Under the pieces are notes generated by a model that had not been told where the DNA came from, searched no databases, and was given only the letters and a program-made list of their open reading frames with translations. From Escherichia coli (GTDB lineage: Bacteria; Pseudomonadota; Gammaproteobacteria; Enterobacterales; Enterobacteriaceae): a stretch of 64,000 bases of DNA. The DNA is taken from the NCBI RefSeq assembly GCF_009931435.1, contig NZ_CP043414.1; one strand, given 5' to 3'. The position numbers and the translations under genes were made by a program. Below are positions 9,384-56,799 of the stretch, in pieces; the stretch's first letter is position 1, and each line of letters opens with the position of its first letter.

Positions 9384-9385
9384 TA

Positions 9386-9412: not shown

Positions 9413-9417
9413 TGGAA

Positions 9418-13606: not shown

Positions 13607-13668
13607 CTTATCTCCAGTCAATCCATGCAGTTGTTAAAAAAGCCGCCTGGCTGGCGGCTTAGGAAAGT

Positions 13669-13893
13669 TTACACCTCTTTGACGCTCTCCTGCTGCAGGA
13701 TTTTGAGCATCTCATCTTTTAACTGTAGCTTTTGTTTTTTCATGCGGACCACTTCCGCATTGTACCCTCGACCGTCGGAACCTTCCTTTCTGGCAATTTC
13801 ATGATCAAGTTTATTGTGTTTATCGAACAAGGACATAAAGCGAGGATTTTCGTTTTTCAGACGGGATATTAAATCTCGGTATTCTGGAAACAT
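13669..13893 (-). CDS. ydcH: Small protein YdcH (DUF465)
   Basis: MFPEYRDLISRLKNENPRFMSLFDKHNKLDHEIARKEG...; ATG at 13893 with GGGAG upstream. The listed ORF starts two codons earlier at a GTG. Confidence 0.9.
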   Translation of the reverse strand: MFPEYRDLISRLKNENPRFMSLFDKHNKLDHEIARKEGSDGRGYNAEVVRMKKQKLQLKDEMLKILQQESVKEV

Positions 13894-14032
13894 ACGCACT
13901 CCCTGTTAGTGGCTGACAAGGTGTATCTGAAATACACACCATCAGATTACTCATTTAACTTAGGGAAAAATGCGAGCGGGATCGTGTTTAACCAGACGAC
14001 ACCTCCCGAAGAAGGTGCCGAAGAAAAAACGA

Positions 14033-15688: not shown

Positions 15689-15912
15689 ACCTGAAAGTGA
15701 GTCCTTCTGGTGTTGTGAATGGTCCCGCGCTGGTCGTTTTCAGCGGCAAGAAAGTGCTTATTTATGACCGCTCACTCTAGACAATATTTATTAATAATCC
15801 AATTGTTGAACTCAGAGAATATGCATTAATCGGCAATTTTTTTATGTCGATGGGATGAGCCTGATTCGTTTGTAAAATCAGGCAAATTTTTGCAAAGGCA
15901 GATAGTCAAAAT

Positions 15913-17256: not shown

Positions 17257-17472
17257 AATGTCTGCCTCCAGTGGTCAGTAATCTGGAGTGTAGGTAACCG
17301 CATTCACTCTGGCGGGAAGAATTTGCAAACTGTGATCTCGCCGCGAAAACATCAATATTATCCATTTCGCTGTAACACAATTGCTTTATTTGTTAATAAT
17401 ATTTTGCAACTAAGTTATCATAATCAAACAACTTCACTTGTCAGCGACACTGCTTCGTTTTTAACATCGCTT

Positions 17473-18396: not shown

Positions 18397-18432
18397 AAAG
18401 TAAGGGATCTTTCGATCCCTTCTTTGATATTT

Positions 18433-20073
18433 TCACGCTGTTGCGAAACTAACAGACTCACCAGCTCCGCGTGATTCTGCCAACACAGAATGTTTGTTCA
18501 GGCGGAAAACGTCTACCGCCTCAGTTAATCGTGCAGCCTGTTCTTCAAGGGATAGCGCCGCCGCAGAAGCTTCTTCTACCAGAGAAGCATTCTGTTGCGT
18601 CACCTTATCCATTTCGGAAATCGCCTGGCTCACCTGCGTTATGCCTCTACTTTGTTCATCCGAGGCGGCGGCAATCTCCTGCATGATATGTGTGACACTC
18701 GCGACGGCATCAACAATCGTGCTCATGGTTTTCCCTGCCGTTGCCACTTCAACCGACCCCAGGTCAATTAACCTGACTGATTCACTGATCAAGCCTTCAA
18801 TCTCTTTCGCCGCCTGGGCGCTGCGACTTGCGAGTGTCCGTACTTCGCTGGCGACAACGGCAAATCCACGTCCTTGCTCACCCGCTCGCGCGGCTTCAAC
18901 GGCAGCATTCAGCGCCAGAATATTTGTCTGGAAAGCAATGCTGTTGATGACGGCAGTGATCTCGGAAATTTTCTTCGAACTCGTGGAGATAGCGCCCATC
19001 GTTTTTACTACACCGGAAACCGTCTCCCCGCCATCGCTGGCTTTAATGGAGGCCTCTTGCGCCAGTTTGCTGGCATGATGCGCGTTATCCGCATTCTGTT
19101 TCACCGTCGCAGTGAGTTGCTCCATGCTAGCGGCAGTTTGTTCGATTGCCGCCGCTTGTTCTTCGGTGCGAGATGAAAGGTCCGCATTGCCAGCGGAAAT
19201 TTCGCTGGTGCCACGATAAATCTCTTCCGCGCCCTGTCGAACAGTCCCGACTGTCATCCCCAGTGAATGCTGCATTTGCTGTAAATGATGACTTAAGCGA
19301 CCGATTTCATTACGACCCGCCGGTTCATCATTCATCGTCAGATCGCCACTGGCAATTTTTTCAATCCGTTGTGCGGCATGTTGCAGTGGACGAATGACGA
19401 TCCGACGTAGCACCATAAATGTTATCAGCGTCATGACCACGGCAAGCACAAACGCGCCAATCATAAACATCACACCCAGGCGGGTACGCTGATGGGCCTG
19501 TTCCGCCAGTTGGTTGGCTCTGGTGCTACGTATCTTAACGGCTTTGCTCAAAATATCGGTATAAGCATTATCCAGCGGTCGGTTCTGCTCACTTTCATGA
19601 TTGATAATCGCTTCAAACATGCCATTTTTGGCATATTTCAACATAGGTTGCATACCCGTGATATAAGCCTGAAAGCGTTGATTTAATTCAGTGTCGAGGG
19701 CTTCATCAGCAGGTGTTTTCACCGGCCGATTCTGATAAGCACGATACCCTTGCTGCGACTGTTTAATCTCCGATTCGGCTTGCGCAATATTTCGCTTCAT
19801 TGCTTCCATTTCCGCAATACGACTCGCCGCCCCGGCCTGAATCATATTGATCCGGGCCGAACGCAAAAAATCTGAGCTGTTCGCTAACCCGGTCCGAATC
19901 TCAATCTCCGCAGTCACATCACGCTGATCGCGATCGGCCTGCCAGAGGAAATAGCCAGCCAGGGCTGAACTCAAGGCAAACAGAAGTAAGATACCGCCAA
20001 GAATGCAGGCAAATAACGGAACCAGCCTGATGTGATGCAAAAAACCTAATCGCTGTGAGGGAGTTGTATTCAT
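18433..20073 (-). CDS. trg: Methyl-accepting chemotaxis protein III (ribose/galactose sensor) Trg
   Basis: 546-aa ORF with periplasmic sensor, HAMP and MCP signalling domain. Confidence 0.95.
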
Positions 20074-20112
20074 TACCGTTGTCTCTCTTCCAGGTTTACT
20101 CCTGATAGAAAG

Positions 20113-20139
20113 TCATCGGCATTTGACGGTAATTACTTA
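20113..20139 (-). promoter_or_regulatory. Sigma-28 (FliA)-type promoter upstream of trg
   Basis: Minus-strand TAAGTAAT-N11-GCCGATGA, about 40 nt upstream of the trg ATG; close to the TAAAGTTT-N11-GCCGATAA consensus. Confidence 0.6.
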
Positions 20140-20368
20140 CGACTAAAAACCTCTTTGCGTCACATTTTTACAACAATTATTGCAGAGAAGATTAATGCCA
20201 TTGGATTGAAGAAAGTGAGGAATGGTTAAACTGGCTAACCCGAATGACGAAAAATTCTGGAAAACAGCACGCAATTTCGTCAGGTGATTATTTTCGTCCC
20301 TAAGGAAACCACATAGGATGCTCACGGGTGCCTGAGACTTTCTGTTTTCAGGCTAACCGGGAATCAGA

Positions 20369-20413
20369 AAGACGAAGGCCCCGACCGATATTTCTATCAA
20401 CCGAGGCCAACGA

Positions 20414-20424
<11 letters not shown>
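20369..20424 (-). ncRNA. sokB: sokB antisense RNA of the hokB/mokB type I toxin-antitoxin locus (approximate coordinates)
   Basis: Placed from the conserved hok/sok architecture (antisense overlapping the mok start); boundaries not supported by clear promoter or terminator signals. Confidence 0.35.
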
Positions 20425-20621
<197 letters not shown>

Positions 20622-20692
20622 GGGCAAGCGCGGGGATTTTCCCCGCGCATCTGACTAGCGGATTCAGTTTCTCATGGCACCCCTTTTACACT

Positions 20693-20866
20693 TCAGTTAG
20701 TGCATGTTTTTTTCGATGCACTAATAGAACCATCATTACAGACAAATTTGCCGCCTGCCGTACAGTGTGAGATCCCCCCTTTCGAACCAGAACAGGGTTT
20801 GCGCCCGGCATCGGCATAAAAGGAAACAAGCGCTCCCATAACCAAGATAAGTGCCAATTTTTTCAT
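20693..20866 (-). CDS. ydcA: Small secreted Cys-rich protein YdcA
   Basis: Manual translation MKKLALILVMGALVSFYADAGRKPCSGSKGGISHCTAGGKFVCNDGSISASKKTCTN (57 aa) with GGAGG Shine-Dalgarno. Confidence 0.8.
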   Translation of the reverse strand: MKKLALILVMGALVSFYADAGRKPCSGSKGGISHCTAGGKFVCNDGSISASKKTCTN

Positions 20867-21110
20867 ATAACCTCCATGATTTATCGAATCTTATGTTCGA
20901 TTTGAACGTTATACGCTGGTTTATTTTGATACCGTTGATGAGATCAAAGATCGGGTGAATTGATTAAAGATAAGCCAGATGGACATATGGACAAGGATTA
21001 TGGTTTTATTTGTCATACAAATAAATATAATAGGCGCTTCCGATGTAGGCCCGTATTCTTCGCCTGTACCACGGGTCGGTTTTAGTACAGGCGTTTTCTT
21101 TAAATATCCT

Positions 21111-21641
21111 TCAGGAACGTTTACGCGGCATCATGCGTAGAAGTGTGTTGTCCTTCCAGAAATAGTGGTGTGCCAGTGCAGCCGCAGCGTGCAACCCGAT
21201 GACAAAATATCCCAGATTCGCCAGCGTCTCATGCCACCACTTTAAGCTATCAACCCGTTCGAAATTGGCCTCTGCTGCATAAGGCATTGTCATACCAAAC
21301 GCAAACCACGGGTTGCCCCGGTTATACATCATCACCAAACCAATCACTGGCAGCGCAATAAACAGGAGATAGATCACCAAATGTCCCAAATGTGCCAGTC
21401 CCGTCATCATCGGTTTTGGTTTAGGTACAATCGGCGGAGTTGAGTATTTAAGCCTTAACAAAAGACGAACAACCATCAGCACGAGAATTGAGATGCCACA
21501 GGAAACATGAATCATGTTGATGAGCGGCCGATCGCTACGTGGGAAGAAACCACGAAACTCCATTGCGCAATACGCTGCGATAACCAACAAAAAGACCAGC
21601 CAGTGAATGCTGATTTGTAACCTTGAGTATTTATTTTCCAT
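21111..21641 (-). CDS. cybB: Cytochrome b561 CybB
   Basis: Start set at MENKYSRLQISIHWLVFLL (176 aa). Confidence 0.9.
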   Translation of the reverse strand: MENKYSRLQISIHWLVFLLVIAAYCAMEFRGFFPRSDRPLINMIHVSCGISILVLMVVRLLLRLKYSTPPIVPKPKPMMTGLAHLGHLVIYLLFIALPVIGLVMMYNRGNPWFAFGMTMPYAAEANFERVDSLKWWHETLANLGYFVIGLHAAAALAHHYFWKDNTLLRMMPRKRS

Positions 21642-21829
21642 AACATTTCCTGCTTTAACATAATTTTCCGTTAACATAACGAGCTTTTCTTAAAATTTCA
21701 TTAAATATTGTTCACCCGTTTTCAGTACGTTACGTTTCACGGCAAGAATGTAGATTGCCCATCCCGCCATCCTGGTCTAAGCCTGGAAAGGATCAATTTT
21801 CATCCGAACGTTCCTGACAGGAGAAGACC

Positions 21830-22831
21830 ATGAGTAAAGTTGGTATTAACGGTTTTGGTCGTATCGGTCGACTGGTGTTGCGTCGATTACTTGAAGTCAA
21901 AAGCAACATAGACATTGTCGCTATTAATGATCTCACTTCCCCAAAAATTCTCGCCTACCTGCTGAAACATGATTCAAACTACGGACCGTTCCCCTGGAGC
22001 GTTGATTTTACGGAAGATTCACTTATCGTTGACGGGAAAAGTATCGCGGTTTACGCCGAAAAAGAGGCTAAAAATATTCCATGGAAAGCGAAAGGCGCAG
22101 AAATCATTGTCGAATGTACTGGCTTTTATACCTCCGCCGAGAAATCGCAGGCGCACCTTTATGCTGGTGCGAAGAAGGTGTTGATTTCCGCCCCTGCCGG
22201 TGAAATGAAAACCATCGTTTATAACGTCAATGACGACACACTGGATGGCAACGACACCATTGTTTCCGTGGCGTCATGCACCACTAACTGTCTTGCACCG
22301 ATGGCCAAAGCCTTGCACGACAGTTTCGGAATAGAAGTCGGCACGATGACGACCATTCATGCCTATACTGGCACCCAGTCACTGGTGGATGGCCCGCGAG
22401 GTAAAGATCTACGCGCTTCACGTGCAGCGGCAGAAAATATCATTCCCCACACTACAGGCGCGGCAAAAGCCATTGGTCTGGTGATCCCAGAACTGAGCGG
22501 CAAACTGAAAGGTCATGCGCAACGCGTACCCGTGAAAACAGGTTCGGTGACTGAACTGGTGTCTATTCTTGGAAAAAAAGTGACTGCCGAAGAGGTGAAC
22601 AACGCGCTTAAAAACGCGACAAACAATAACGAGTCATTTGGTTATACCGATGAAGAAATAGTCTCTTCTGATATCATTGGCAGCCATTTCGGGTCGGTGT
22701 TTGATGCCACGCAAACCGAAATTACCGCCGTGGGCGATTTACAGCTGGTGAAAACGGTCGCCTGGTATGATAACGAATATGGCTTCGTCACGCAGCTTAT
22801 TCGCACCCTCGAAAAATTCGCTAAACTCTGA
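21830..22831 (+). CDS. gapC: Glyceraldehyde-3-phosphate dehydrogenase GapC, intact 333-aa frame
   Basis: Full-length GAPDH with NAD-binding GFGRIGR and catalytic SCTTNCL motifs in one frame. Confidence 0.9.
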
Positions 22832-22838
22832 CGAGCAA

Positions 22839-22866
22839 AGGCGGAGGGAAAAGCCTCCGCCTCTTT
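22839..22866. terminator. Hairpin/terminator between convergent gapC and aldA
   Basis: GGCGGAGGG-AAAA-GCCTCCGCC stem followed by TCTTTC. Confidence 0.6.
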
Positions 22867-22872
22867 CACTCA

Positions 22873-24312
22873 TTACGACTGTAAATAAACCACCTGGGTC
22901 TGCAGGTATTCATGCAAGCCATGTTTACCATCTGCGCCGCCAATACCGGATTTACGCCATCCGGCGTGGAATCCTTGCATAGCTTCGAAGTTTTCACGGT
23001 TGATGTAAGTTTCACCAAACTTCAGCCCTTTAATAGCTTTCATCGCGACGTTCAGGTTTTGGGTATAGAGTGATGAGGTCAGGCCGTAATCACTGTCATT
23101 AGCCATTGCGATAGCCTCTTCCAGCGTGTCAAATGCGACCACTGGCAGCACCGGGCCAAAGGTTTCCTCGTGCATAATCGACATTTCCTGACGAACATCC
23201 AGTAGCAATGTCGGCGGATAATAATATCCTTTCCCCTCTACTGCCTTGCCCCCCAACGCCACTCTCGCCCCCTCTTCGACTGCGCGCGCCACTTTTTGCT
23301 CGACCCTTTCCAGCGCCGCGGCGTTAATCAACGGCCCCATCGCAATATCGTTGCGTTCAGCAGGGTTACCAAATTGAACCGCCTGCATCGCTTCACCCAG
23401 CCGATTGACGAAATGATCATAAATGCCTTTCTGTACATAAACACGTTCTGCACAGTTACACACTTGCCCACTATTAATGACGCGTGAATCAACGATGGCT
23501 TTGACTGCCAGTTCAAGATCGGCATCGTCCATTACGATAGCTGGTGCTTTACCACCCAATTCCAGACACACTTTTGTGATATTTTTTGCTGCAGTCGCCA
23601 TGATCTTTTCACCTGCAGAGACGCTGCCTGTCATACTGACCATTGCGACCTTTGGGTTACCCGCCAGTTCTTGCCCAACGGTTTCACCACGCCCCAGCAC
23701 AAGGTTAAACACACCGCGTGGAAGGCCTATTTCATCGACAATTTTGGCAAAAGCAATCGCATTGTTTGGCGTAAATTCACTGGGTTTAATGACGATGGTA
23801 TTACCGGTCAAAAGAGCGGGAGCCATTTTGCGGGCAATGAGGAAGAACGGGAAGTTCCACGGCAGAATGCCGGTAGTCACGCCAAGCGCACGTTTAAACA
23901 GAAGAATATTTTCTCCTGGACGATCGCTTTGAATAATCTCGCCTTCATAACGCCGTGCCCACTCCGCCATGTAATCGATATAGTCCGCAGTAAAAGCCAC
24001 TTCGACTTCAGCCAGCTGCTGGATCTTGCCCCCTTCTTCAACAATCAGCGCACTGATTTCACCTGCGCGTTCGCGGATCCCGGCGGAGATTTTGCGCAAC
24101 CAACTGGCGCGTTCAATGGCAGGCAACGCTTCCCATTCTGGTTGTGCACGTTCTGCTGCATCGATTGCCTTACGGGCATCCTCGGCCTGACCATCGGGAA
24201 TGCGGGAAATGACCGCCTCTGTAGCAGGGTTTACCACATCAATCCATGCGTCTCCACGCCAGGTAACAAACTGTCCATCTATATACATAGGATGTTGAAC
24301 GGGTACTGACAT
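22873..24312 (-). CDS. aldA: Lactaldehyde dehydrogenase AldA
   Basis: 479-aa aldehyde dehydrogenase with catalytic Cys motif (GQVCNCAERVYV). Confidence 0.95.
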   Translation of the reverse strand: MSVPVQHPMYIDGQFVTWRGDAWIDVVNPATEAVISRIPDGQAEDARKAIDAAERAQPEWEALPAIERASWLRKISAGIRERAGEISALIVEEGGKIQQLAEVEVAFTADYIDYMAEWARRYEGEIIQSDRPGENILLFKRALGVTTGILPWNFPFFLIARKMAPALLTGNTIVIKPSEFTPNNAIAFAKIVDEIGLPRGVFNLVLGRGETVGQELAGNPKVAMVSMTGSVSAGEKIMATAAKNITKVCLELGGKAPAIVMDDADLELAVKAIVDSRVINSGQVCNCAERVYVQKGIYDHFVNRLGEAMQAVQFGNPAERNDIAMGPLINAAALERVEQKVARAVEEGARVALGGKAVEGKGYYYPPTLLLDVRQEMSIMHEETFGPVLPVVAFDTLEEAIAMANDSDYGLTSSLYTQNLNVAMKAIKGLKFGETYINRENFEAMQGFHAGWRKSGIGGADGKHGLHEYLQTQVVYLQS

Positions 24313-24508
24313 GGGCGACTCCTGTGATTTATATGTTTGCTTTTGGTAAATGCATTGTTAATTAACATCAATCATCATAGAGACGGCATCGTGAAAGGAC
24401 AATTCTGTGAAGGGCTTCATAAAAACAAGTGTAAAAGGAATAAAAGGCAGAAATAAACGTCAGGAGTCATGCCCGTTTGCAAACAAATGGTTAACAAACG
24501 GGCAATTT

Positions 24509-25309
24509 TTAACGTAACGAGCGACTTTCCATCGCCTCGATGAGCACCGCATCGTGTTTCAGCGTTTGCCATGCCTGGATGACTTCTGCCGGAAAATCAA
24601 CGTGAACGATAAAATCTCGCCCGCGGGGACCGTAGCCATCGCTATCATCGCGTAAACGTGGCAGCTCGCCAGTGAGTAGTGAGAGATAACGCTCAACCGG
24701 CCATAATCCTTGCAACGGATTAACAAAGATTACACTGTCTGCGTTGTTTCCTAGCTGAGGAATGAATCCGGGATAACTTAACCAGCGAGGTGCATCTGGA
24801 TTGTCCCCGGTCATACGGCGGAACGTCGCCATCGTGCGCCGCTGCATGGTGGGGTCCTGAACAACGATAGCCGTATGAACTCTTTCTACGGCCTGATTCA
24901 ATAGCGCGATGCTAAAGCGTGCGTTTTCACCGCAGTTTGTTGACTGGTCTTCAATCCAGATTTTTTCATGCGGAATGTGCCAGAACTGATGAGCGATATC
25001 CGCCAGGATGGTAGCTTCTGCTCTGCCAGTGGTGCGGATAGTGTTGTAGTGCGGATGCTGTGCGATGGCGCTATACAAAAAAGTTGTCGAGTGACCGATA
25101 CCACCACTAATCAGTAGAGGAATTTGCTGATCGCGGGCAATCTTACATGCCGCATCGATAGTCGGCATAACCGCATTGCCTGCAAGGATCACGCAATCGG
25201 CCTGATACGGCACCTCACCGGAGAAATCATCCTGCGCCAGCCACTGACCGATAACATTTATGGCATCTATGGTTGCCGGCGAAAGCGTCGGAAACGGGGT
25301 AATGTTCAT
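24509..25309 (-). CDS. ydcF: DUF218 protein YdcF
   Basis: 266-aa ORF matching YdcF as recalled. Confidence 0.9.
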
Positions 25310-25580
25310 GGTTCCTCCTTATCGTTCCCTTAAGAATACTGCGTGAGATAATAATGAGAAGCGGAGCACTCTGAAAGGAGGAAGTCGTATTTCCTTAACC
25401 GCCACTCCGCAAGCCTGACATATCTTTTAAGGAAATGCTGTAGATAAACATTATTCATCTTGCAGCAGAGAATTGTATTTTTCTGAATTCCTGAATTTTT
25501 GCCCTTACCGTTTTAGAATTAATAAAAAACCCGGCGCTAAATGCTTACCGGGTTTTAGATTTATCAGGCAAATAGCAGTG

Positions 25581-28500
25581 TTAACCGCTAATCTGCTCCA
25601 TCGCCTGCAAAATACGCTTATCTGAAATCGGATAAGGCGTACCAAGTTGTTGAGCGAAGTAACTAACGCGCAACTCTTCTATCATCCAACGGATCTCTTT
25701 CACGTCTTCATCCTCACGACGTGCAGGCGGCAGTTTGTTGATCCACTGCAGCCACGCCTGCTGGACGTTTTCAACTTTCAGCATCTGAGCACGGTCACGG
25801 TGCGGATCAACCGCCAGTTTTTCCAGACGTTTTTCAATCGCCTGTAAATAACGCAGCGTGTCGCCCAGCCGTTTAAAACCGTTGCCAGTGACAAAACCGC
25901 GATACACCAGCCCGCCCATCTGCGCTTTAATGTCAGAAAGCCCCAGCGCCATAGTCATATCCACCCGCCCTTTCAGGCGTTTGTTGATATTGAACACCGC
26001 TGTGAGGATTTGCTCGACCTGCTTCGCAATATCCACCACCGTGTCGTTCAGTTCAGCGCGCACTTTTTCATGAAGCGCAGCAAAGCCTTCTTCCGTCCAG
26101 ACCGGGCCACCATTGGCGTCGATCAGTTGATCCACACCGCAGGAGATACAGTCGTCTATCAGCTCCAGCACTTTGCCATACGGGTTAAAGTACAGCCCAA
26201 GTTTGGCTTTGTTTGGCAACTTCTCATGCAAATATTTGATTGGCGACGGAATATTCAGCAGCAGTAAACGGCGAAGACCGTTCCACATTGCCTGCTTTTG
26301 CTCCAGCGGGTTATCAAACAGTTTGATCGCCACGCTGTCGCGCTCATCCACCAACGCTGGCCACGCCTTCACTTTGTAGTTGCCACGCTTCTGTTCGTAG
26401 CTTTCCGGCAGTTGCCCAAAACTCCAGATATGTAACCCGCTTTGCTCAATACCATCATCGGCAACGGCGGAAAGCGTTTCCTGCACTTTGCCTTTCAGGG
26501 CGTCTTTCAGATCCTGTAATGAGCGCCCTTCTTTTAGCTTCTTATTTTTGTCATCCACCACACGGAAGGTGATTTTCAGGTGATCGGGCACCTGATCCCA
26601 GTGCCAGTCTTCGCGGTCAACGGTAACGCCGGTCATCCGCCGTAGCTCGCGCTCAAGGCTGTCGAGCAACGGCAGTTCCAGCGGCGTGACGCGACCTAAA
26701 AACGCTTCGGCGTAGTTTGGCGCGGGCACAAAATTACGCCGTACCGGTTTCGGCAACGATTTGATTAGAGCAATCACCAGTTCACGGCGCAGGCCGGGGA
26801 TCTGCCACTCAAACCCGCTTTCCTCAACCTGGTTAAGTAACGGCAGCGGAATATGCACGGTCACACCGTCAGCATCCGCCCCCGGCTCAAACTGATAGCT
26901 TAAACGCAGCTTGAGATTGCCCTGATGCCAGAAGTTCGGGTAATCCAGCTTGCTGATTTTTTCCGCCCCTTCTTTGATCAACATGCTCTTTTCAAAGTTG
27001 AGCAAATCAGGTGTTTCGCGGCTGACTTTTTTCCACCAACTATCAAAGTGTCGTGCAGAGATCACATCATGGCTGATGCGCTGGTCGTAGAACTCAAACA
27101 ACGTTTCGTCATCCACCAGAATATCGCGGCGACGTGATTTGTGTTCCAGTTCTTCCACTTCTGCCCGTAGTTTCAGGTTTTCACGGAAGAATGCGTGACG
27201 CGTCTGCCAGTCACCTTCCACCAGCGCGTGGCGAATAAAAAGTTCACGACACAACGCCGGATCAATCTGGCTGTAGTTGACCTTACGCGCAGCAACAATC
27301 GGCAACCCGTAAACGGTGACTTTTTCAGTTGCCATCACCGCGCCCTGCGCCCGTTCCCAGTGCGGTTCGCTGTAGGAGCGTTTAATCAAATGCTGAGCAA
27401 CTGGCTCCACCCATTCTGGATCGATGCGTGCCGCAATGCGCCCCCACAGGCGGCTGGTTTCTACCAGTTCCGCCACCATTGCCCATTTCGGCGGCTTCTT
27501 GAATAAACCAGAACCGGGGAAGATGGAGAAACGCGCGTTACGTGCGCCGGTATATTCCTGTTTATCGGCATCTTTCATGCCGATATGCGAAAGCAAACCT
27601 GTCAGTAAGGCGATGTGAATTTCGCGATACTCCGCCGGTTCGCTGTTAACCGGAATGCCAAGTTCTTTCACCACCTGGCGCAACTGGGTGTAGATATCCT
27701 GCCATTCGCGCACGCGCAGATAGTTAAGGTAATCGGTACGGCACAGGCGACGGAAGGCGTTTGAAGAGAGCGCCTTTTGCTGCTCGCCGAGATAATTCCA
27801 CAGATTTACAAACGCCAGGAAGTCGGATTCTTTATCGTGAAAGCGACGATGTTTTTCGTCCGATGCCTGCTGCTTGTCCATTGGCCGCTCACGCGGGTCC
27901 TGAATAGAGAGCGCGGAAGTGATAATCATCGCCTCACGCACGCAGCCATGTTTCTGCGCTTCCAGCACCATTCGCGCCAGACGAGGATCGACTGGCAGTT
28001 GCGAGAGCTGGCGACCGAGCGGCGTCAGTTTATAGGCGCTGGCCTGTTCATCAGTGGTGATCGCGCCCAGCTCTTCGAGCAGACGCACGCCATCCTGGAT
28101 ATTGCGTTTATCCGGCGCTTCTACAAACGGGAACGCAGCGATATCGCCCAGCCCCAGCGCGGTCATCTGCAAAATAACCGAGGCCAGGTTGGTACGCAGA
28201 ATCTCCGGATCGGTAAACTCCGGGCGCGAGAGGAAATCGTCTTCGGAATAAAGACGAATGCAGATCCCTTCTGACACACGACCACAGCGGCCTTTACGCT
28301 GATTAGCTGAAGCCTGCGAAATGGGCTCAATCGGCAGACGCTGCACTTTGGTGCGATAGCTGTAGCGGCTGATACGCGCCGTACCTGGGTCGATAACGTA
28401 TTTAATCCCCGGCACAGTCAGCGAGGTTTCCGCGACGTTAGTCGCCAGCACAATGCGCCGTCCGCTGTGCGACTGGAAGACGCGGTTCTGCTCGCTGTTC

Positions 28501-38531: not shown

Positions 38532-41500
38532 TTAGAACGTTTTCTTGAAGTTCAGCATCACGCCTTTATCGCTGATACCATCCTCTTTCCAGTGGTAAGC
38601 ATCCAGATTCAGCGAACTTTCTTTGCTGCTGTACTTCACGCCGACGCTTGCCAGACTGTTGATGCCGCCGCCCTTCTGCCCATCATCGACATTAAAGTGC
38701 TGGCTGCCTGCGCCTGCCAGGCTTGCCGTGCGCTGGCTCTTGCTGTAGCTGAGGTTCGGCCCACCTTCCAGCGTGGCGTTCGCACTCCAGCCGTCTTTCC
38801 CTGCGTAGTCCAGCTTCAGCCCGACGATGCTGTCCACCGCCGTTTCGCTGCCGCTGTTCATGCTCAGGTTAAAGTCTCCGGCATTGCGCTCCTGATAGTC
38901 GCCTTCCAGCGTGTGACGCAGTTTCACACCCGCATATGGCGTGATTTTCAGCCCTTCGCGCGGTTCAAAGGTTTTCGCCCCTTCGCTGCGGAACTCCAGG
39001 TACTGTTGTTTCACATTCGTGTCTGCCGTCTTACTGATGTCGCCGTAAGCCACCGAACGGCTGCTGTCCAGTTGGTGAATATCGTAGCGCAGCGCGTTAT
39101 TCCAGCTCATACCGTTGTCAAAGGACATCTGATGCTTCAGGCCAAAGAACTGGCTGTAGCCGCCTGTAACACCATTATCACCCGCTTTCTGCGCACCATC
39201 GCCGTCCAGACGGGCGATACCGTACTCCAGGCTCATGGTCTGGTTTTCGCTCAGGTCGAGGGTTTTGCGCAGCGCCAGCATGTCGTACTCGGTATTATTC
39301 CCCAGCTCTGCACGCGGATCGCCTTTCGCCACCACGTTAAATGCCAGACCGTTGCCCATCTTCGGTGCTGCGTCTGCCAGCATACTAAAGCGATTGCTTA
39401 ACACACGCGCTTCGCGGAATACCGTGGTCGCCTGGCTACCGCTAATTTGCTTAAGTGCGCTGTTCAGCTCTGCAGTGGTGCCGACGTTCAGACTGGTATA
39501 CAGCTCATTGTTGGTGTAACCCGCATCCAGCGCTTTTGCCACGTCATTCACTGAGGCATCCGTCGCCACATCGGTGTAGGCTTTTTTGCTCATGGTCACG
39601 TCAACGTTGCCGCTGGCGTCGGTACTGCCTGTCGCCTGCCAGACAACAGATGTCGAAGTGATCGCTTGCGCATCGGTCAGGTTGCTGCCTTGCACCACAT
39701 CATCAAAGCTGGCGGTTTTGTCCGCCGTTCCCGCCGCAAAAGCAGTGTTGATCTCCACGCCTTTCATACTGGCGTTATTGACCATCAGCTTACCAGCGCT
39801 ACCATCGGCGTTCGTCCCCACCACGTAACCATTGAGGTTGTTCATGCCATCGTTGCGGCTAACGGAAGAAGAATGACTGTCGTCGTATGGCGTAATGGTG
39901 GGTTCTTCCGGCGCGGTAAAGTCGACATAGTGTACTTCCGTACCGTCTCCCCCTTCACCACTGCCCTCCATCACCGTGCCAGATTGTTTAATTAATCCGG
40001 AACCATTCACGCTGTCGTCAATATAAACAGTGCCGTTGTTAACAATATGACCATTGCTCCCGAGCTTGCTGAAGGCATATGAATTGCTGGCATATATATT
40101 GATGGTGCCGTTATTCTCAATCACCGCATCAGCCGTGGCATCGGATTCCAGTTGCATCCCTACCATGCCTGTCCTGGTAGTTCCTTGCGTGCCAACGTTA
40201 ATGGTGCCGTTGTTGATCATTTTGGCTTTACCGTGCGCCGACATCGCCACATTACTATTTTTGTCGATATTAATAATGCCGTCGTTTATTGCCTTGCTGG
40301 CCGTGTTTGATGTCAGGATCTGCCCGTTGATGAAGCCAGACTGGCCATTATAGAACGTATGCCCATCACCACCGGTGCTAATTCTCATGTCACCTTCTAC
40401 TGTCCCCCAATTATTAAAATGTCCTGTCCACAGCGCATTCGTCGCCACCGTTGCCACACTGCCTTCCAGATTGTTGAAGGTGCCACCTTTATCAACCGAT
40501 GCATTATTTACGGTACCAGCATTATTAAAGGTAGAGGCTGCAGCAAAAGTTATTTTCTCTACTTTTCCACCGGCCTGATTATTCATTACGGCAGACCCGG
40601 AAGAACCTTTCCAGGCGTTCACCGTTCCGGTGTTATAAAAATTGCTGGCCCACTGGTCAACCGTGTTGATGCTGCCTGAGTTGTGAATAACCGATCCTGC
40701 AACAGTCGTTCCGACTTGCCCGCTCACCGTACCTTCGTTAGTGAACACGCCGCCATCCACAGAAACAGTTTTTGTCGTGCCGTGGTTGGTGTATTCCCCA
40801 CCGGTTGCGATATCAACCTCAATAATACTGCCCGTGGTTTCATTGACCAGATGACCAAAGTCAGCCACGGTGACAGGTCCCCCGGTGACCGTACCCGTGT
40901 TTGTTACCAGGGTTTCGGCGGTTGCCGTGATATCAGTAGTACCGCCATATGAATACAGGTTAAGCGTTTCCCCGTCAGCCGAAATAATGTCACCATTTCT
41001 CCAGCTTAATGAAACAAACCCGTCAGTCGGGTTATAGGCGTTATTGTCCTGGCATTTCCCAAAAGTACAGATGGATCCGTAATTAACGATAGTCCCGCTG
41101 CCATCGTTATAGAACGCCTGCCCGTTTTCAGCATTAATATTGATGATGCCCGTCTGATCATTAATCGCAGTGGCACCATTGTAAACAGCCATGCCGACCA
41201 ATTTATTTGGCCCCAGCGTATCATCATCATTTTCATTTACTTCCAGATTTATAGTTCCCTGGTTAATAATAATGTTACCTGGCTTCATCGCAGCCATACC
41301 GGCACCGGAATTATAGAGTGTTATTTCACCACCCTGCTGGTTAATGGCGGTAGAATTAACGCTGGCACCAGAACTGTCTGTACCCACAGCCATCCCGACA
41401 GCATAATCTTTGGCGCTGTCATGAGCGATATTGGACGCCAGACTGGAAGTATCGTTTTCATCAACCCATAATGCGTCAATGAAAATCTTACCCATATTGT

Positions 41501-44024
41501 CAATGGTTGAATTATTGGAGGCCAGCATGCCAACACTCCCCCGGCCGTACATTTGGATCTCACCGGCAGTATTATTTAAAGCGGTGCCATTGTTGCCTGC
41601 CGTCATCCCCGTCAGACTAATGACTTGATTATTAAAAATTAAAGGGTCACTCAAACCTTGAGCGTTCAGACTATTGAAAATACGTCCCTGCGCGAGTACC
41701 TTACTGGTGATGGCACTGTTATTAACAACTCGACCACCATAGACGCTCAAATACGCAGAACTAGCAGAGTCTGATGTATTCCCCTCTACGCCGTAGATAG
41801 AAATCGTTACGTTGTTATTATTTACAGCTAGCGACTCTTCACCAGTAGCCCTGGCAAAGCCAATATTACCCAGTTCTACATCACCATTATTTATCATCTG
41901 CGAACCGGAATTCACCAGTACAACCTGTGATGTGTCACTATTATAATGTTCAAATGTATTTATATCTTTTAGGATAAAAGTGGCGTTGCGGCCAAGTTCT
42001 AAATGGGCTCGGTTATTCAGTTGAATGATATCGCCTAATCCAAGCGGAAAAACACCACTGATTGTTGAATCCCCATTTAGATACAGAGTAGAGTGCCCAT
42101 CGATTTTGATAACAGGCGTATCGCCATAACCATTACGTTTTAAAGCAGGTGTGGAGCCATCCTGTAGAGTATTTTCTTCGCCAGCTAAATGGATACCACC
42201 ATTAATTTCGACGGTATTACCGTCACCCGACACAACCAGACCATTAATATTTTCCTGGCTGCCATCCATTTCATTATAGATACGAGAAGTGACTTCACTG
42301 TCAGCAACAACGGTAAGATTGCCATTTAATACGATATTATTGTCGTGTCCCTGCACCTGAATGCCAACAGAAGGGGTAAAAAAGTCATTTATTGAATGCT
42401 CTCCGGCCTGATTTTTATCCACCAGAATATTACCGGTAATTTCAACTTCATTGCCATCACCGGCTACATTTACCCCTGTCGCAACACTGCCGGTCACATT
42501 AAGCTCATTTGTCGCCAGCGTCATGGCGTTATTATTTCCAGAGACATCCAGACCGGTTGAATAATCCCCTACATCCACACGGCCAGCCAGAGAAATCAGA
42601 CCATCATCTCCGATGATGCGAATCCCGGTACTGAAATTATCAGCAATGATGTCCCCCACATTGATAAGGGTAGAATGATTACCCTCAATCAGAATCCCTG
42701 TCGCATTGGCCTCTGAACTACCATTACTGACGGATATATCCCCCCTGTTAATGAACGTCGACGCATCACCACTGAGAGAAACACCCTGCGAATTTTCATC
42801 CACGACCGTTATATTTCCTTTGTTGCTGACGATCGCGCCATTACCCTCAACATCAATACCCCGTGCAGCATTGCTAACGTATAAATCCCCTTCCTGTATA
42901 ACCGTCGCATTATTACCAACGATTTTGCTGCCCGTTGAATTTTGCCCATCAACCGTCATATGTCCTTTATTATCGGTCCTGACATCATTACCGCTAATAA
43001 CGGCCCCTATTCCGCCGTTATTGACAGTGGAGTCGCCAGTGTTATTTAAGATTGTACGATCGCCATTGACGATAACCGCCGTGCCAGCATCGACCACCGT
43101 CTGACCGTTATTATTGATGGTTATATTATCGCCGGTCAGGATACCGACCACCGAACCTTCACCGACAGCCTCTGTTTTACCCTCGTTTGTCAGCGCAATG
43201 TTGTTACCATTAATCATCATCACCGTGCCGCCATTCAGGGCCGTGTTACCGCCCTGGTCAGTGATAATCGCATCATTAACGGTAATTATTCTGTCCGTTG
43301 TTCCATCAGACACGACACTGGCTAACTGTGTGACGTGGAGTTTACCTTCGTCATCGTAGCGCCATTCCATATCACCTGTGGTACTCACACCACTAAACAT
43401 GGCGGTATGAGTCTCTTCATGGTTTTCCCACTCAGTCACAATGGTTTTTCGGCCATCTTTTGCCGTCAGCGTGTAGCTACCATCTTCATTTTGGGTATAA
43501 GTGAACGTCGCCCCGCGAATCTTCAGGGTTTGCGCGTCCTTGTCCCATGTCACATTGTTATCAAAGACAACGGGTTCTGTTCTCGGGGGGTCAACATCAT
43601 CACCGCTATTGTCGGGTGGAGTAACATTACCGCCGTTATCTGGCTTTACAGGTATACCTGAATCTTCATCACTGGGAACGGGTAGCGGTAGAGGGCCATT
43701 ATCATCTGGCGGTATGGGCTGGGGAAAAGAAGAGTGAGCAGAATGATCATTGTCATGAGACAATTCAATCACTGCGAGTGTTGCCAGTACCGCCGTGGCA
43801 CCTAATGCCAGTAACGAGCTGAAACCATTATTTGTAACAACAGCACATTTTTCTGGCACTGTTTTCAACTTCGTTGACGGTCGGGCGTGCCCTTCTGACT
43901 GACATGTCATTTGAGAGCTTCTGCGCATACTGTCTGCACTCTCGCCTTCTGTTATTTCCGCCCCCCAGCTTTGGCCACTTAACGCTATAGCGATACACGC
44001 TGATAATAACGTTTTCTTTTGCAT
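38532..44024 (-). CDS. ydbA: Giant autotransporter adhesin YdbA, uninterrupted 1830-aa frame
   Basis: Signal peptide, long degenerate beta-helical passenger repeats (N-x-G-x-I/V motifs) and C-terminal beta-barrel translocator ending ...MLNFKKTF. Confidence 0.9.
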   Translation of the reverse strand: MQKKTLLSACIAIALSGQSWGAEITEGESADSMRRSSQMTCQSEGHARPSTKLKTVPEKCAVVTNNGFSSLLALGATAVLATLAVIELSHDNDHSAHSSFPQPIPPDDNGPLPLPVPSDEDSGIPVKPDNGGNVTPPDNSGDDVDPPRTEPVVFDNNVTWDKDAQTLKIRGATFTYTQNEDGSYTLTAKDGRKTIVTEWENHEETHTAMFSGVSTTGDMEWRYDDEGKLHVTQLASVVSDGTTDRIITVNDAIITDQGGNTALNGGTVMMINGNNIALTNEGKTEAVGEGSVVGILTGDNITINNNGQTVVDAGTAVIVNGDRTILNNTGDSTVNNGGIGAVISGNDVRTDNKGHMTVDGQNSTGSKIVGNNATVIQEGDLYVSNAARGIDVEGNGAIVSNKGNITVVDENSQGVSLSGDASTFINRGDISVSNGSSEANATGILIEGNHSTLINVGDIIADNFSTGIRIIGDDGLISLAGRVDVGDYSTGLDVSGNNNAMTLATNELNVTGSVATGVNVAGDGNEVEITGNILVDKNQAGEHSINDFFTPSVGIQVQGHDNNIVLNGNLTVVADSEVTSRIYNEMDGSQENINGLVVSGDGNTVEINGGIHLAGEENTLQDGSTPALKRNGYGDTPVIKIDGHSTLYLNGDSTISGVFPLGLGDIIQLNNRAHLELGRNATFILKDINTFEHYNSDTSQVVLVNSGSQMINNGDVELGNIGFARATGEESLAVNNNNVTISIYGVEGNTSDSASSAYLSVYGGRVVNNSAITSKVLAQGRIFNSLNAQGLSDPLIFNNQVISLTGMTAGNNGTALNNTAGEIQMYGRGSVGMLASNNSTIDNMGKIFIDALWVDENDTSSLASNIAHDSAKDYAVGMAVGTDSSGASVNSTAINQQGGEITLYNSGAGMAAMKPGNIIINQGTINLEVNENDDDTLGPNKLVGMAVYNGATAINDQTGIININAENGQAFYNDGSGTIVNYGSICTFGKCQDNNAYNPTDGFVSLSWRNGDIISADGETLNLYSYGGTTDITATAETLVTNTGTVTGGPVTVADFGHLVNETTGSIIEVDIATGGEYTNHGTTKTVSVDGGVFTNEGTVSGQVGTTVAGSVIHNSGSINTVDQWASNFYNTGTVNAWKGSSGSAVMNNQAGGKVEKITFAAASTFNNAGTVNNASVDKGGTFNNLEGSVATVATNALWTGHFNNWGTVEGDMRISTGGDGHTFYNGQSGFINGQILTSNTASKAINDGIINIDKNSNVAMSAHGKAKMINNGTINVGTQGTTRTGMVGMQLESDATADAVIENNGTINIYASNSYAFSKLGSNGHIVNNGTVYIDDSVNGSGLIKQSGTVMEGSGEGGDGTEVHYVDFTAPEEPTITPYDDSHSSSVSRNDGMNNLNGYVVGTNADGSAGKLMVNNASMKGVEINTAFAAGTADKTASFDDVVQGSNLTDAQAITSTSVVWQATGSTDASGNVDVTMSKKAYTDVATDASVNDVAKALDAGYTNNELYTSLNVGTTAELNSALKQISGSQATTVFREARVLSNRFSMLADAAPKMGNGLAFNVVAKGDPRAELGNNTEYDMLALRKTLDLSENQTMSLEYGIARLDGDGAQKAGDNGVTGGYSQFFGLKHQMSFDNGMSWNNALRYDIHQLDSSRSVAYGDISKTADTNVKQQYLEFRSEGAKTFEPREGLKITPYAGVKLRHTLEGDYQERNAGDFNLSMNSGSETAVDSIVGLKLDYAGKDGWSANATLEGGPNLSYSKSQRTASLAGAGSQHFNVDDGQKGGGINSLASVGVKYSSKESSLNLDAYHWKEDGISDKGVMLNFKKTF

Positions 44025-44670
44025 GAGAAATCCTTTTCAATGAATGACATTTCAAATAATAAAATATGAGTAATAGATAAGAAATAGCCACAGGCTGTGT
44101 CATGATTTAATGCCTGCTCTTGAAATTTTATTTAGCAATCCCAGAACATTCAACTTAATTAGTATTTCGAAACCTCAATGTAGACACATAAAAAACAAAT
44201 TATTCGATTACTTAGGCTATTTGTTGCATTAATACACATCCTCTAACAATAATCAGACAAAAAGCAATGTCAGCGTCAAATTGGGTAGCTGATTCATATT
44301 ACTGACCACTCCGGAAATTCATTCATCGTGAAAATATTAACATTTCAACCATGTTCCATTTAATCAACCCACTGAAAATCTGGAGGTTATCTACTGCGGT
44401 TTGTTGTTGACTGCCCCTGACAGGTTTACCAGGCGTTGACAGAAGATGAGGCTTGCAAGATGCTAAAAACAATGTGGTGTTACAAGCAATCCCATAAACC
44501 TCGTAACTTCACTTAAATGAGCGATGCCGTCCATATTTGGGTTGACTATAAAAACCCTTAATATTGAGGTTGATGATGATATTCATGATGGCATTGGAAA
44601 AATAGGACACCCATAAAATATCTATACAGCCTTTAAATTAAATCATTGAAATATCGCTGTTGCATAGTGC

Positions 44671-44997
44671 TTATTTTTGCAACCATTTCCCGTTAATTCC
44701 CTGCACATATTCCCCCGGTTTGGCCCGAGCTACAAGCTTTTGTCCGGCAAGCTTCGCGATATCATCTACCGATACATTATTTTGCTTTGCCAGTTGTTGA
44801 TAACTCACTTTACGTGCGGCATTAATCTCGGTTACTAATTTCTCTGTTTCAGCATCCGTTTTCAACGCAACCAAATAACCGTTAAATGTTTCACCTACCC
44901 GCCCCTGAATTCTGGCCTCGTCCAGTGTTAATGCCACTACATTGCTGCTTACCAGTCCAACAAGAAACGCACAAAGAAGTAATGTTTTCTTCATCAT
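44671..44997 (-). CDS. ydbL: Periplasmic protein YdbL (DUF1318)
   Basis: Start set at MMKKTLLLCAFLVGLVSS (signal peptide); the listed ORF extends 26 codons upstream into ynbE. Confidence 0.85.
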   Translation of the reverse strand: MMKKTLLLCAFLVGLVSSNVVALTLDEARIQGRVGETFNGYLVALKTDAETEKLVTEINAARKVSYQQLAKQNNVSVDDIAKLAGQKLVARAKPGEYVQGINGKWLQK

Positions 44998-45001
44998 CCC
45001 C

Positions 45002-45187
45002 TCAGAAAAGATCGCTACGGGTTTTGAGTAAATCTTCGACATCTTTGTCTGCCTTAATGATGATCTCATGCTCAATTTTAACGTTCATATTGATAGTGAT
45101 CGGTTCCTTAGGTGCAGCGACTTCAATGCGAGGCGTACAGCCAACCAGCATAAAAGATGACGTCAACGCAGCCAGTAAAATTTTCAT
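45002..45187 (-). CDS. ynbE: Lipoprotein YnbE
   Basis: 61-aa ORF MKILLAALTSSFMLVGCTPRIE... with lipobox; 4-nt overlap with ydbH. Confidence 0.9.
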   Translation of the reverse strand: MKILLAALTSSFMLVGCTPRIEVAAPKEPITINMNVKIEHEIIIKADKDVEDLLKTRSDLF

Positions 45188-47823
45188 TGTTTTTCCTCAC
45201 ACCCTTTTCCTTGCGGACAGCCATTTTCCGGCAGACGCGCGTTCTGCTCCAACCATGCCTGGAGATTATCGCCAAAGCGTAAACTGCGCCACAGGGTAAA
45301 AATATTCTCTTCATGATGGTAATTAAGGTTTACCGTACCACTTTTACCGTCGACGCGACTGGTACCTGTAATATTGGCCTGCATGGTTAACACACCAAGA
45401 TTATCTAAATTAATTTTTGTCGATGAACGGCTAATTTCCATATAGCGCAACCAGTTAATCGCTGAACCCGCAGTCATATTGTCTTTCACCACCGCATCTG
45501 CGGTGTCTTTATCCAGCCGCAAAGTCATTGGTCCGCTATTTGCCAGCCAGCCGTCTTTAACTATCCATTTTTCATTGTTCAGCCATAAAGGCAATGCCCC
45601 ACTAAATGCCCCGGACATGGCGAATTGTTTCGGATTGACGGCGCTAACCAGTTCGCTGGATGAGAGATTATTCAGCCGCAACAGCGCCGGGTCATGTTGC
45701 GGCATGCGTAATTGTTTCATCAGCACGTTACCGCCTAACACATCGACGCTAACATCGGTCAACAACAATGGTTCGTCTTCACTCCACGGATAACGCCCTT
45801 GCAAGTCAGCCGTAATATTTTTCGCTGTCACCAGATTAATCACTTCGGCAATTCGCAACGTAACGGGGCCGCGAGTCCCCAGATGCCAGGCTCCATCGGC
45901 AAAACGGAAAGGCAGGACAAAATCGACACCGTTGACCTGATTATCTGGCATCCAGGCACTACCGCCTTTCAACACACCGTGCCCTCCCGCGCGGAATCCT
46001 TGTTCAGGCGCAGCAGAAAATGCAACCTGGGCATACAGCTCGCCATCGCGTAAGTTCATCTTCCAGTCGGGTGGCACCAACGGTTGAAACACAGTCAACG
46101 ATTGCTTAGGCCACCAGGCGTTACCGCGCAGGCGAATGCCGTCCCAGCGTCCATTTACCTGCACCGGCCCAATCTCACCAGCATGTAAATCCCCTTTGAA
46201 GAGGAAATATGTCGGATCGCGTCCATCGACACTAAATTTTAAGGTTGATGGCGGTAACACACTGCCACCCGTGAACAGCGTTTGCCCGGCGTCCAGTGAC
46301 AGCGCGCCGCTGAACGAAGGATTCTGCACATCACGTACCCAGACGACGGGCTTGTCGAGAATCAATCGCGGCTTTTCTACCGTCATTGTCCCGTATTGCA
46401 ATTTGTCAAAGCCGGTTGAGAGATCGGTCAGCGTAATCGTGCTGTCATGCCACTCACCTTTTCCTGCGACATCCCAGGTGGCATTCATCGGTGTAAAACT
46501 CCCTTTTCCCCAGTAGCGCCACTGCCAGCGGCCAGCGTCAGGGAGAAAATCATTCGCCAGCCCATCCATATGCAGTACGAAATCGCCCAGTTCATTTTCA
46601 TGCGCCTGCAAAATGGCCTGCAAACGTCCGTCAACACCACGTTGGGTGACTTTTACACCCGCTAAAGGCCAGCGGATTTCATCAATATCCAGCGAATCGA
46701 TGACTCTTCCCTTCGAACGTAATAACGCGCCTGGCTCAAAGGCCAGCGTTGGGTCAGTCAGACTTCCGCTTAGCTGCGCAGGTAAACGGGCATATAAAAT
46801 GAGGTCCGCCTGTTTCGCTTCACCGGTCAGTTGCATAGGCAGCTGGCTGTTATCCATGCTTAATTTTCCTGGGCCAAAATTAAGCACCGCGTTGCCCTTA
46901 CCCGCTTGCCCCTGGGTCAGCACACTCAGTCGTCCGCTGACCAGAGCATTCTCAAGCCCTGCCTGCCAGTTGTCGACTTTGACACCCAGTCGTCCACTCA
47001 AAGGAAAACCTGCATACGGCCAGCTCCAGCGACCATCGCTTACGGTCAATTGTTGGCGAGTAATTTGCCACGGCAGATCGAGCAACGGATCGCCGTTATC
47101 CCGTGCCAGCACAATCAATTGCCCGCTATTTTCCTGCCAGTCCAGCTCGGCATCCACCAGTGAAGGCTCCTGCGGCAAGTTTAACGTCGCAGTAGCATGA
47201 CCACTTACAGGAAGTCCATCCGGCACTAGCGGCATAGTAAATTCCCCCACCAGTTTAACTGGCGGCTGATTTTCAAACGCGACGACATCCAGTTCGCTGA
47301 CTGTAAGTTGTTGCCCTTTCAGCTGGCCTTGAAATTTAACTTTTTCGCCCTGATAACGCAGTTGCTGGATATCGGAGTTTAATGCGAGAGAGAGTTTTCC
47401 CTGCCATTCCTGCCAGGGAGAAAAAATCAGTTTATCGATATTGATCCAGGTGTTAGGCAACATGGCCTGCCACTGCGCGAGGGTTTTCGGAGCGGCTGGC
47501 GATTGCTCCGTCTGCGGCAATTTCGCCAGACAAGCAGAATCAAGTTCTACCGTGCCGACGTTCAATAACCAGCGGCTGGGATGAGAAAGGCTGGCGTTTG
47601 TGATATGTGCAAGCTGACAATCTCCTACCAGATAACGGAGATCGGGAATGATTAAACCTTTACGCGTAATGCGTGGGCTTTCATCTAAAGCAATACGTGT
47701 GCCGAGCGGTAGCCAGATGCCCGCCAGCGTGGGAACCCACAACCCGAGCGTCATCAGTAGCGTCAACGGCACAAGAATAATCAGTAATAGCAGCGCGAGA
47801 ACGGCTTTATATTTACCCAACAT
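45184..47823 (-). CDS. ydbH: AsmA-like large protein YdbH
   Basis: 879-aa ORF with N-terminal TM anchor; operon ydbH-ynbE-ydbL. Confidence 0.9.
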   Translation of the reverse strand: MLGKYKAVLALLLLIILVPLTLLMTLGLWVPTLAGIWLPLGTRIALDESPRITRKGLIIPDLRYLVGDCQLAHITNASLSHPSRWLLNVGTVELDSACLAKLPQTEQSPAAPKTLAQWQAMLPNTWINIDKLIFSPWQEWQGKLSLALNSDIQQLRYQGEKVKFQGQLKGQQLTVSELDVVAFENQPPVKLVGEFTMPLVPDGLPVSGHATATLNLPQEPSLVDAELDWQENSGQLIVLARDNGDPLLDLPWQITRQQLTVSDGRWSWPYAGFPLSGRLGVKVDNWQAGLENALVSGRLSVLTQGQAGKGNAVLNFGPGKLSMDNSQLPMQLTGEAKQADLILYARLPAQLSGSLTDPTLAFEPGALLRSKGRVIDSLDIDEIRWPLAGVKVTQRGVDGRLQAILQAHENELGDFVLHMDGLANDFLPDAGRWQWRYWGKGSFTPMNATWDVAGKGEWHDSTITLTDLSTGFDKLQYGTMTVEKPRLILDKPVVWVRDVQNPSFSGALSLDAGQTLFTGGSVLPPSTLKFSVDGRDPTYFLFKGDLHAGEIGPVQVNGRWDGIRLRGNAWWPKQSLTVFQPLVPPDWKMNLRDGELYAQVAFSAAPEQGFRAGGHGVLKGGSAWMPDNQVNGVDFVLPFRFADGAWHLGTRGPVTLRIAEVINLVTAKNITADLQGRYPWSEDEPLLLTDVSVDVLGGNVLMKQLRMPQHDPALLRLNNLSSSELVSAVNPKQFAMSGAFSGALPLWLNNEKWIVKDGWLANSGPMTLRLDKDTADAVVKDNMTAGSAINWLRYMEISRSSTKINLDNLGVLTMQANITGTSRVDGKSGTVNLNYHHEENIFTLWRSLRFGDNLQAWLEQNARLPENGCPQGKGCEEKQ

Positions 47824-55863: not shown

Positions 55864-56799
55864 ATGTCGCAAAATCAAGAAATTAGTAAGAAAGAACAAT
55901 ACAATCTCAACAAATTACAAAAACGTCTGCGTCGTAACGTGGGCGAAGCCATTGCTGACTTCAATATGATTGAAGAAGGCGATCGCATCATGGTTTGCCT
56001 CTCCGGGGGTAAAGACAGCTATACCATGCTGGAGATTCTGCGCAATTTGCAGCAAAGCGCGCCAATCAATTTTTCGCTGGTGGCTGTTAACCTCGATCAA
56101 AAGCAACCGGGCTTCCCGGAACACGTTCTGCCCGAGTATCTTGAAAAGCTGGGCATTGAGTACAAGATTGTGGAAGAGAACACTTACGGTATCGTGAAAG
56201 AGAAGATTCCGGAGGGCAAAACCACTTGCTCACTGTGTTCTCGTCTTCGTCGCGGAATTCTTTACCGTACCGCAACGGAACTGGGAGCGACGAAGATCGC
56301 GCTGGGTCACCATCGTGACGATATCCTGCAAACGTTGTTCTTAAATATGTTCTACGGCGGCAAGATGAAAGGTATGCCTCCGAAACTGATGAGCGATGAT
56401 GGCAAACATATTGTGATTCGTCCGCTGGCCTACTGCCGCGAGAAAGATATTCAGCGCTTTGCCGATGCAAAAGCGTTCCCGATTATTCCGTGCAACCTGT
56501 GCGGTTCACAGCCTAACCTGCAACGTCAGGTGATTGCTGACATGTTGCGTGACTGGGATAAACGTTATCCGGGGCGTATCGAGACGATGTTCAGCGCGAT
56601 GCAGAATGTGGTGCCGTCGCATCTGTGCGATACCAACCTGTTCGATTTCAAAGGCATTACCCACGGTTCTGAAGTGGTTAACGGGGGTGATCTGGCGTTT
56701 GATCGCGAAGAGATCCCTCTACAACCGGCGGGTTGGCAGCCTGAAGAAGATGAAAATCAGTTGGATGAGTTACGACTGAATGTGGTTGAAGTGAAATAA
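55864..56799 (+). CDS. ttcA: tRNA 2-thiocytidine(32) synthetase TtcA, intact
   Basis: 311-aa ORF with PP-loop SGGKDS and Cys clusters. Confidence 0.95.

Follow-up and report, generated by a model that had tools for sequence, protein, structure and literature searches.

The question raised by this locus is what has become of the genes for phenylethylamine and phenylacetate catabolism that lie between ydbL and ydbA in K-12, and whether an empty site at this position is the result of a loss or an original state. TynA, FeaB and FeaR belong to the conversion of phenylethylamine to phenylacetate, the Paa enzymes make up the phenylacetyl-CoA epoxidation pathway, and the island in K-12 that holds these genes allows growth on 2-phenylethylamine, tyramine and phenylacetate. 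The MG1655 annotation (b1383-b4492) gives the order ydbL-feaR-feaB-tynA-paaZ-paaABCDEFGHIJK-paaXY-ynbG-ydbA, which matches the order (ydbL, feaR-feaB-tynA, the paa cluster, ydbA) that a first, sequence-only reading of this DNA had given. In the window, by which we mean the whole 64-kb stretch of DNA that was analysed, that reading had seen ydbL and ydbA separated solely by a 646-bp AT-rich region, and this proved exact. The intergenic spacer occupies positions 44025-44670, has a GC content of 0.348, as compared to 0.484 for the whole window, and marks the site at which K-12 carries the 18.8-kb feaRB-tynA-paa island.

The 17 K-12 fea, tynA and paa proteins, together with YdbL and YnbG, were compared with the whole 64 kb by tblastn, and the only matches obtained were to YdbL and to aldA (22873-24312), an unrelated aldehyde dehydrogenase paralogue. 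None of the epoxidase genes paaABCDE was thus found in the window by tblastn, nor were paaFGHIJ, paaK, paaZ or paaXY, so that the claim that the fea, tynA and paa genes are missing between ydbL and ydbA holds throughout these 64 kb.

On one side of the spacer, a minus-strand open reading frame of 1830 amino acids (38532-44024, with its ATG at 44022-44024) constitutes an intact gene for a YdbA/BigA-family surface protein, as identified from the ORF list and by Pfam (BigA_N, 2.5e-26; BigA_beta, 1.4e-24). On the other side lies ydbL, also on the minus strand (44671-44997, with its stop codon at 44671-44673), which encodes 108 amino acids, was identified by tblastn (91.6% identity to K-12 YdbL) and Pfam (DUF1318, 3e-30) and serves as the conserved left anchor of the island site. 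Beyond ydbL, and again on the minus strand, are ynbE (45002-45187; Pfam YnbE-like lipoprotein family) and ydbH (45184-47823; Pfam YdbH-like). These two genes are common to K-12 and other enterobacteria, are 95.4-96.2% identical to K-12 and keep the same order across every locus that was fetched. Synteny continues after ydbH with ldhA, hslJ and ydbK/nifJ, which appear on the plus strand in the ORF list. The RefSeq annotation of a near-identical locus, that of RMDEC465, lists the same genes and describes the long reading frame as a BigA/YdbA N-terminal beta-barrel domain protein; there, as in the window, ydbL is the immediate neighbour of the ydbA-type gene.

The window differs from K-12 at several other places, which we note here as separate observations. 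At 55871-55913, the window lacks the cryptic prophage Rac, which takes up about 23 kb at ttcA in K-12, such that the uspF side (K-12 1434959) leads directly to ttcA (K-12 1411941). A 4.4-kb segment with no K-12 match (618-5049) stands in place of the K-12 hicA-hicB toxin-antitoxin region; it contains an ORF fragment with an integrase core (rve; 836-1366), an ORF with no Pfam match (2974-3540) and one with a weak LprI-like match (3887-4666). At 9382-9383, the K-12 element IS609 (insQ) is absent and ydcL and ydcO are contiguous. Finally, gapC (21830-22831), a pseudogene in the K-12 annotation, is intact in the window as a glyceraldehyde-3-phosphate dehydrogenase ORF of 333 amino acids.

Our census was based on 5426 complete E. 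coli genomes. Using sensitive blastn, the spacer was found in 17 of these, in single copy, always at the ydbL/ydbA locus and with 98.5-100% identity. Escherichia cryptic clade I is a deep branch whose members are labelled E. coli in databases, and it is to this branch that the carriers lead. Relative to K-12, aligned blocks of the window are 94.2-97.4% identical and individual shared genes 91.7-98.1% identical. The lineage comparison considered a 24-kb stretch of shared, syntenic genes (10000-34000). This stretch is 99.0% identical to the goat isolate R32_14_1F, the sole record in the collection to reach 99%, about 98% identical to 13 further genomes, all of them spacer carriers, and no more than 96.8% identical to the other genomes listed in the ranking. 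The group at 98-99% accounts for 14 of the 17 carriers and includes 2013C-4282 (98.1%), which is an Escherichia cryptic clade I strain with a complete genome (PMC10100065). The shared-gene DNA is, in other words, closer to a recognised clade I strain than to the other E. coli genomes listed. These identities, combined with the published placement of 2013C-4282, indicate that the window is part of a cryptic clade I chromosome that the collection does not itself contain, an assignment that should be read as resting on one named strain and on local identity values. Of the two explanations put forward by the sequence-only reading, a different lineage or a clean indel, the first is thus well supported.

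The second did not survive, as the spacer is unlike both K-12 flanks of the island. Alignment with K-12 runs up to the stop codon of ydbL (window 44673) and picks up again some 10 nt ahead of the ydbA ATG, and between these points the spacer is not collinear with the K-12 sequence downstream of ydbL or of paaY. Indeed, blastn, including searches with a word size of 7, revealed no similarity of the spacer to the K-12 ydbL-feaR and paaY-ydbA spacers, and the junction in the window should therefore not be regarded as a clean excision relative to K-12. Neither tblastn nor blastn with a word size of 7 detected pseudogene remnants of feaR or paaY in the spacer. No flanking direct repeats or IS ends were found in 43900-44800, where the repeat search gave nothing beyond a 13-nt match in two copies, attributable to chance, and a 12-nt palindrome within ydbA. 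The spacer of a phylogroup B2 genome, ST1193, is by comparison collinear with K-12: its two K-12 flanks meet exactly, at points 64 bp past ydbL and 14 bp past paaY, and no repeat or scar borders the junction. It was from this empty site, set against K-12, that the island was defined as 18,805 bp (8272-27076 of locus L001). A partial relative of the spacer was found at its end nearest ydbA. Within a minus-strand blastn segment at 43975-44153, which comprises the first 50 nt of ydbA and the 129 bp upstream of its ATG, these 129 bp resemble the spacer of SMS-3-5 (phylogroup F) at 73% identity (blastn, word size 7). The rest of the spacer has no relative among the K-12, ST1193, O157 and SMS-3-5 spacers.

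The adjoining ydbA gene has diverged as well. As compared to K-12, its 3' 1.7 kb are 80.8% identical, while the 5' two-thirds are 66-68% identical or cannot be aligned, and the window accordingly has a ydbA allele that is specific to the clade and strongly diverged in its 5' (passenger) part. Alleles of ydbL also vary among E. coli haplotypes, with a difference that reaches about 27% between O157 and ST1193. The divergent 5' part of ydbA and the differences between ydbL alleles together characterize the locus as hypervariable and mosaic. One E. coli locus, L008 (strain SCPM-O-B-8794, 2465-12272), combines a divergent ydbL (75% amino acid identity to K-12) with a K-12-like fea-tynA-paa island (96-100% protein identity). 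At the DNA level this ydbL is 75.6% identical to that of the window, a level like that of other Escherichia species, and its presence beside a K-12-like island points to recombination between ydbL allele and island state.

In the sequence-only reading, the rarity of the absence was overrated. In the census, paaA-E are present in 3154 of the 5426 genomes and absent from 2272 (42%). The K-12-type adjacency of ydbL and feaR was found in 3274 genomes, the ST1193 (B2)-type empty junction in at most 1036, the O157-type in 374, the SMS-3-5 (F)-type in 42 and the spacer of the window type, as given above, in 17. In representative loci of O157:H7 (phylogroup E), ST1193 (B2) and SMS-3-5 (F), ydbL directly adjoins a ydbA-type gene. 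Published work agrees with such a distribution. By PCR, tynA was detected in 0 of 28 O157:H7 isolates, 0 of 11 neonatal meningitis isolates and 7% of uropathogenic isolates, and CFT073 lacks a 33-kb area around tynA (PMC4640556). Between ydbH/ynbE/ydbL and ynbC/ynbD, the paa locus has been reported to form a heterogeneous region (PMC4951805), and the paa cluster of E. coli B was lost via IS3 (PMC3032704). The absence seen in the window is one state of a known, published and common presence/absence polymorphism, and no new mechanism is involved.

For the history of the site, we analyzed the ydbH region in genomes that represent other species, a sample of 80 loci onto which marker proteins were mapped. 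The spacer is absent from all 80 of these loci, in which only ydbL is matched. In those contigs that reach past ydbL, ydbL is followed by feaR, on the opposite strand, and feaB in Enterobacter, Lelliottia, Klebsiella, Raoultella, Trabulsiella, Pseudocitrobacter, Leclercia, Silvania and some Citrobacter, directly in most loci and after 3-4 kb in three Raoultella loci. Wherever the retrieved flank extends that far, tynA, paaZ and paaA come next. In these other genera, FeaB is 84-92% and TynA 81-92% identical to K-12, and the flanking LdhA is 89-94% identical. The GC content of the island is 0.52, while that of its surroundings is 0.50. Moreover, E. coli itself includes partial-deletion forms, in which a piece of feaR has become fused beside paaY or paaX, and deletions therefore do occur at this locus. 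In E. albertii and E. whittamii, the nearest outgroups obtained, pdxI comes directly after ydbL, and the island and ydbA are both missing; it should be considered that E. fergusonii and the named E. marmotae and E. ruysiae representatives lie outside the retrieved loci and that two Escherichia sp. contigs end just after ydbL. The adjacency of ydbL and pdxI falls at 11093-13026 of the E. whittamii locus (L011) and at 4977-5523 of the E. albertii locus (L012), and from it ydbA may be a later addition in E. coli.

Taken jointly, these results are best explained by a clade I chromosome in which the whole fea-tynA-paa block is missing from a conserved site, leaving a lineage-specific spacer and a divergent ydbA, most likely through an old deletion. 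We assign this reading a probability of roughly 0.85. Under it, an old deletion would have removed the feaR-feaB-tynA-paaZ-paaABCDEFGHIJK-paaXY block from the ydbL/ydbA site, the spacer would then have diverged or been replaced by recombination, together with the hypervariable 5' end of ydbA next to it, and the 646-bp spacer would since have been inherited together with the intact, divergent ydbA allele. The part of this reading that concerns direction is held less firmly. That the empty states are losses of an old, vertically inherited resident island, rather than sites that never gained one, is what we consider reasonably probable, and ancient loss is favoured because the order ydbL-feaR-feaB-tynA-paaZ is conserved in many enterobacterial genera.

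The explanation that competes best with an old deletion is that the empty site is primitive in Escherichia. The island would then always have been missing from clade I, and K-12-like lineages (among them A, B1 and C) would have gained the 18.8-kb block from another enterobacterium by horizontal transfer and homologous recombination of the flanks. Such a history would suit the absence of the island from this site in E. albertii and E. whittamii, the precise joining of K-12 flanks at the ST1193 empty site, which carries no scars or repeats, and the lack of island remnants in the spacer of the window. It would also suit the mosaic ydbL alleles and the O157-like ydbL that stands beside the island in L008, both of which speak for recombination at the locus. 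However, vertical descent is the simplest explanation for the identical order ydbL-feaR-feaB-tynA-paaZ-paaA at the same site in many genera, the divergence of the island proteins is similar to that of the flanking LdhA, the GC content of the island resembles that of its surroundings, and partial-deletion intermediates exist. We thus consider primitive absence unlikely, while still deserving of weight. A further variant, in which the island was lost at the base of Escherichia and then re-acquired via the conserved flanks, is conceivable; the absence of both the island and ydbA from E. albertii and E. whittamii is in line with it.

Another question is whether the spacer is more than what an old deletion and later divergence left behind. 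A consensus scan yielded a promoter-like site, TTGAAT-17-TAAAAT, at 44153 to 44125, but the scan total of three such sites does not exceed the 3.3 expected from shuffles. As the site count is at the level of chance and no terminator-like site was found in the spacer, the promoter and terminator scan is uninformative. The Rfam scan of 43000-46000 gave no match at E<=1, and all ORFs wholly inside the spacer are of 49 amino acids or shorter. The spacer presumably holds the promoter and 5' leader of ydbA, a role suggested by its position. With its low GC content, and located as it is ahead of a gene for a large surface protein, it would be consistent with an ordinary regulatory region that nucleoid proteins may silence. 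A more specific proposal, namely that the spacer encodes a regulatory element peculiar to this lineage, for instance a small RNA, a small protein or a silenced promoter region, through which the intact YdbA surface protein of clade I is controlled, appears to us improbable.

It could also be suggested that the fea, tynA and paa genes have merely moved to another chromosomal site or to a plasmid outside the 64-kb window. The direct evidence from the source genome ends with these 64 kb, and a few paa matches in the collection are indeed plasmid-borne (three of 3161 paaA-E places). The relatives that share the spacer were therefore examined with a composite query, in which window 42000-44670 (2.67 kb, lineage-specific) was joined to 500-bp pieces of K-12 paaA, paaK, tynA and feaB. 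On each of the 17 carrier chromosomes, which came at the top of the ranking, the query matched at one place, corresponding to its lineage-specific part, while island-positive genomes were matched at two to four places. At megablast sensitivity, and for chromosomes only, paaA, paaK, tynA and feaB thus had no match in any of the 17 carriers, from which it follows that the lineage, as sampled, lacks these four genes on its chromosomes. In addition, genomes with a paaA-E match carry a median of one such place and a maximum of two. Relocation is accordingly very improbable. That the junction is an assembly artefact, or a recent deletion in the laboratory or in a single isolate, is extremely improbable and was rejected, as it is common, at 98.5-100% identity over 646 bp, to 17 complete genomes that were sequenced independently (from humans, cattle, goat, dog and food) and that differ among themselves, with identities in and around ydbA as low as 93.8-96.9%.

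Given the established roles of the pathway, we predict that the strain cannot use phenylethylamine, tyramine or phenylacetate. Clade I joins the other lineages from which the fea-tynA-paa block was already known to be missing. Judging from the other genera, the island seems to be a long-standing resident of its site that was lost repeatedly, and such repeated loss bears on how the association of the island with particular niches (the bovine udder or the gut, for example) should be read. The spacer itself may be used as a minor marker, since it is confined to clade I-like genomes in the collection. The significance of these results should nonetheless be seen as limited, as they concern a known polymorphism and not a new kind of biology.

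When the window is compared with known haplotypes, K-12 MG1655 presents the same flanks in the same order, with ydbK, ldhA, ydbH, ynbE and ydbL leading to ydbA, pdxI, ydbD and ynbA-D. The flanks are 92-98% identical to the window, except for ydbA (81% over the 3' 1.7 kb). MG1655 has, however, the 18,805-bp island and ynbG, neither of which is present in the window, and its ydbA is a pseudogene split by IS2 and IS30, while that of the window is intact. Phylogroup B2 (CFT073 in the literature, PMC4640556, and ST1193 as examined here) is like the window in that ydbL adjoins an intact ydbA-type gene in the absence of fea, tynA and paa. The B2 spacer of ST1193, however, is 374 bp long and collinear with the K-12 flanks, and so represents a clean 18.8-kb indel, while the spacer of the window is not collinear; the B2-type junction is also found in up to 1036 genomes, as compared to 17 for the window type. 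O157:H7 and SMS-3-5 likewise lack the island and have ydbL next to ydbA, but with spacers of 413 and 457 bp, respectively, and with ydbL and ydbA alleles that differ from those of the window, the O157 ydbL being only about 79% identical. The closest likeness is to clade I (PMC10100065), as the shared genes of the window are most similar to a small set of genomes that includes 2013C-4282, and nothing contradicts membership; the marker gene specific to clade I, a 1368-bp gene with a pipB2 domain (EsCd1-10290c_1484), would not be expected to fall inside the window. Finally, the secondary losses, that is, the IS3-mediated loss in E. coli B, the tynA-paaZABCDE deletions of mastitis isolates and the fusions of a feaR fragment with paaY, lead to the same outcome, a strain with no functional phenylacetate pathway. 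These losses are, however, recent and partial and leave island remnants or IS elements behind, whereas in the window nothing of the island is left and the empty state is common to a whole deep lineage.
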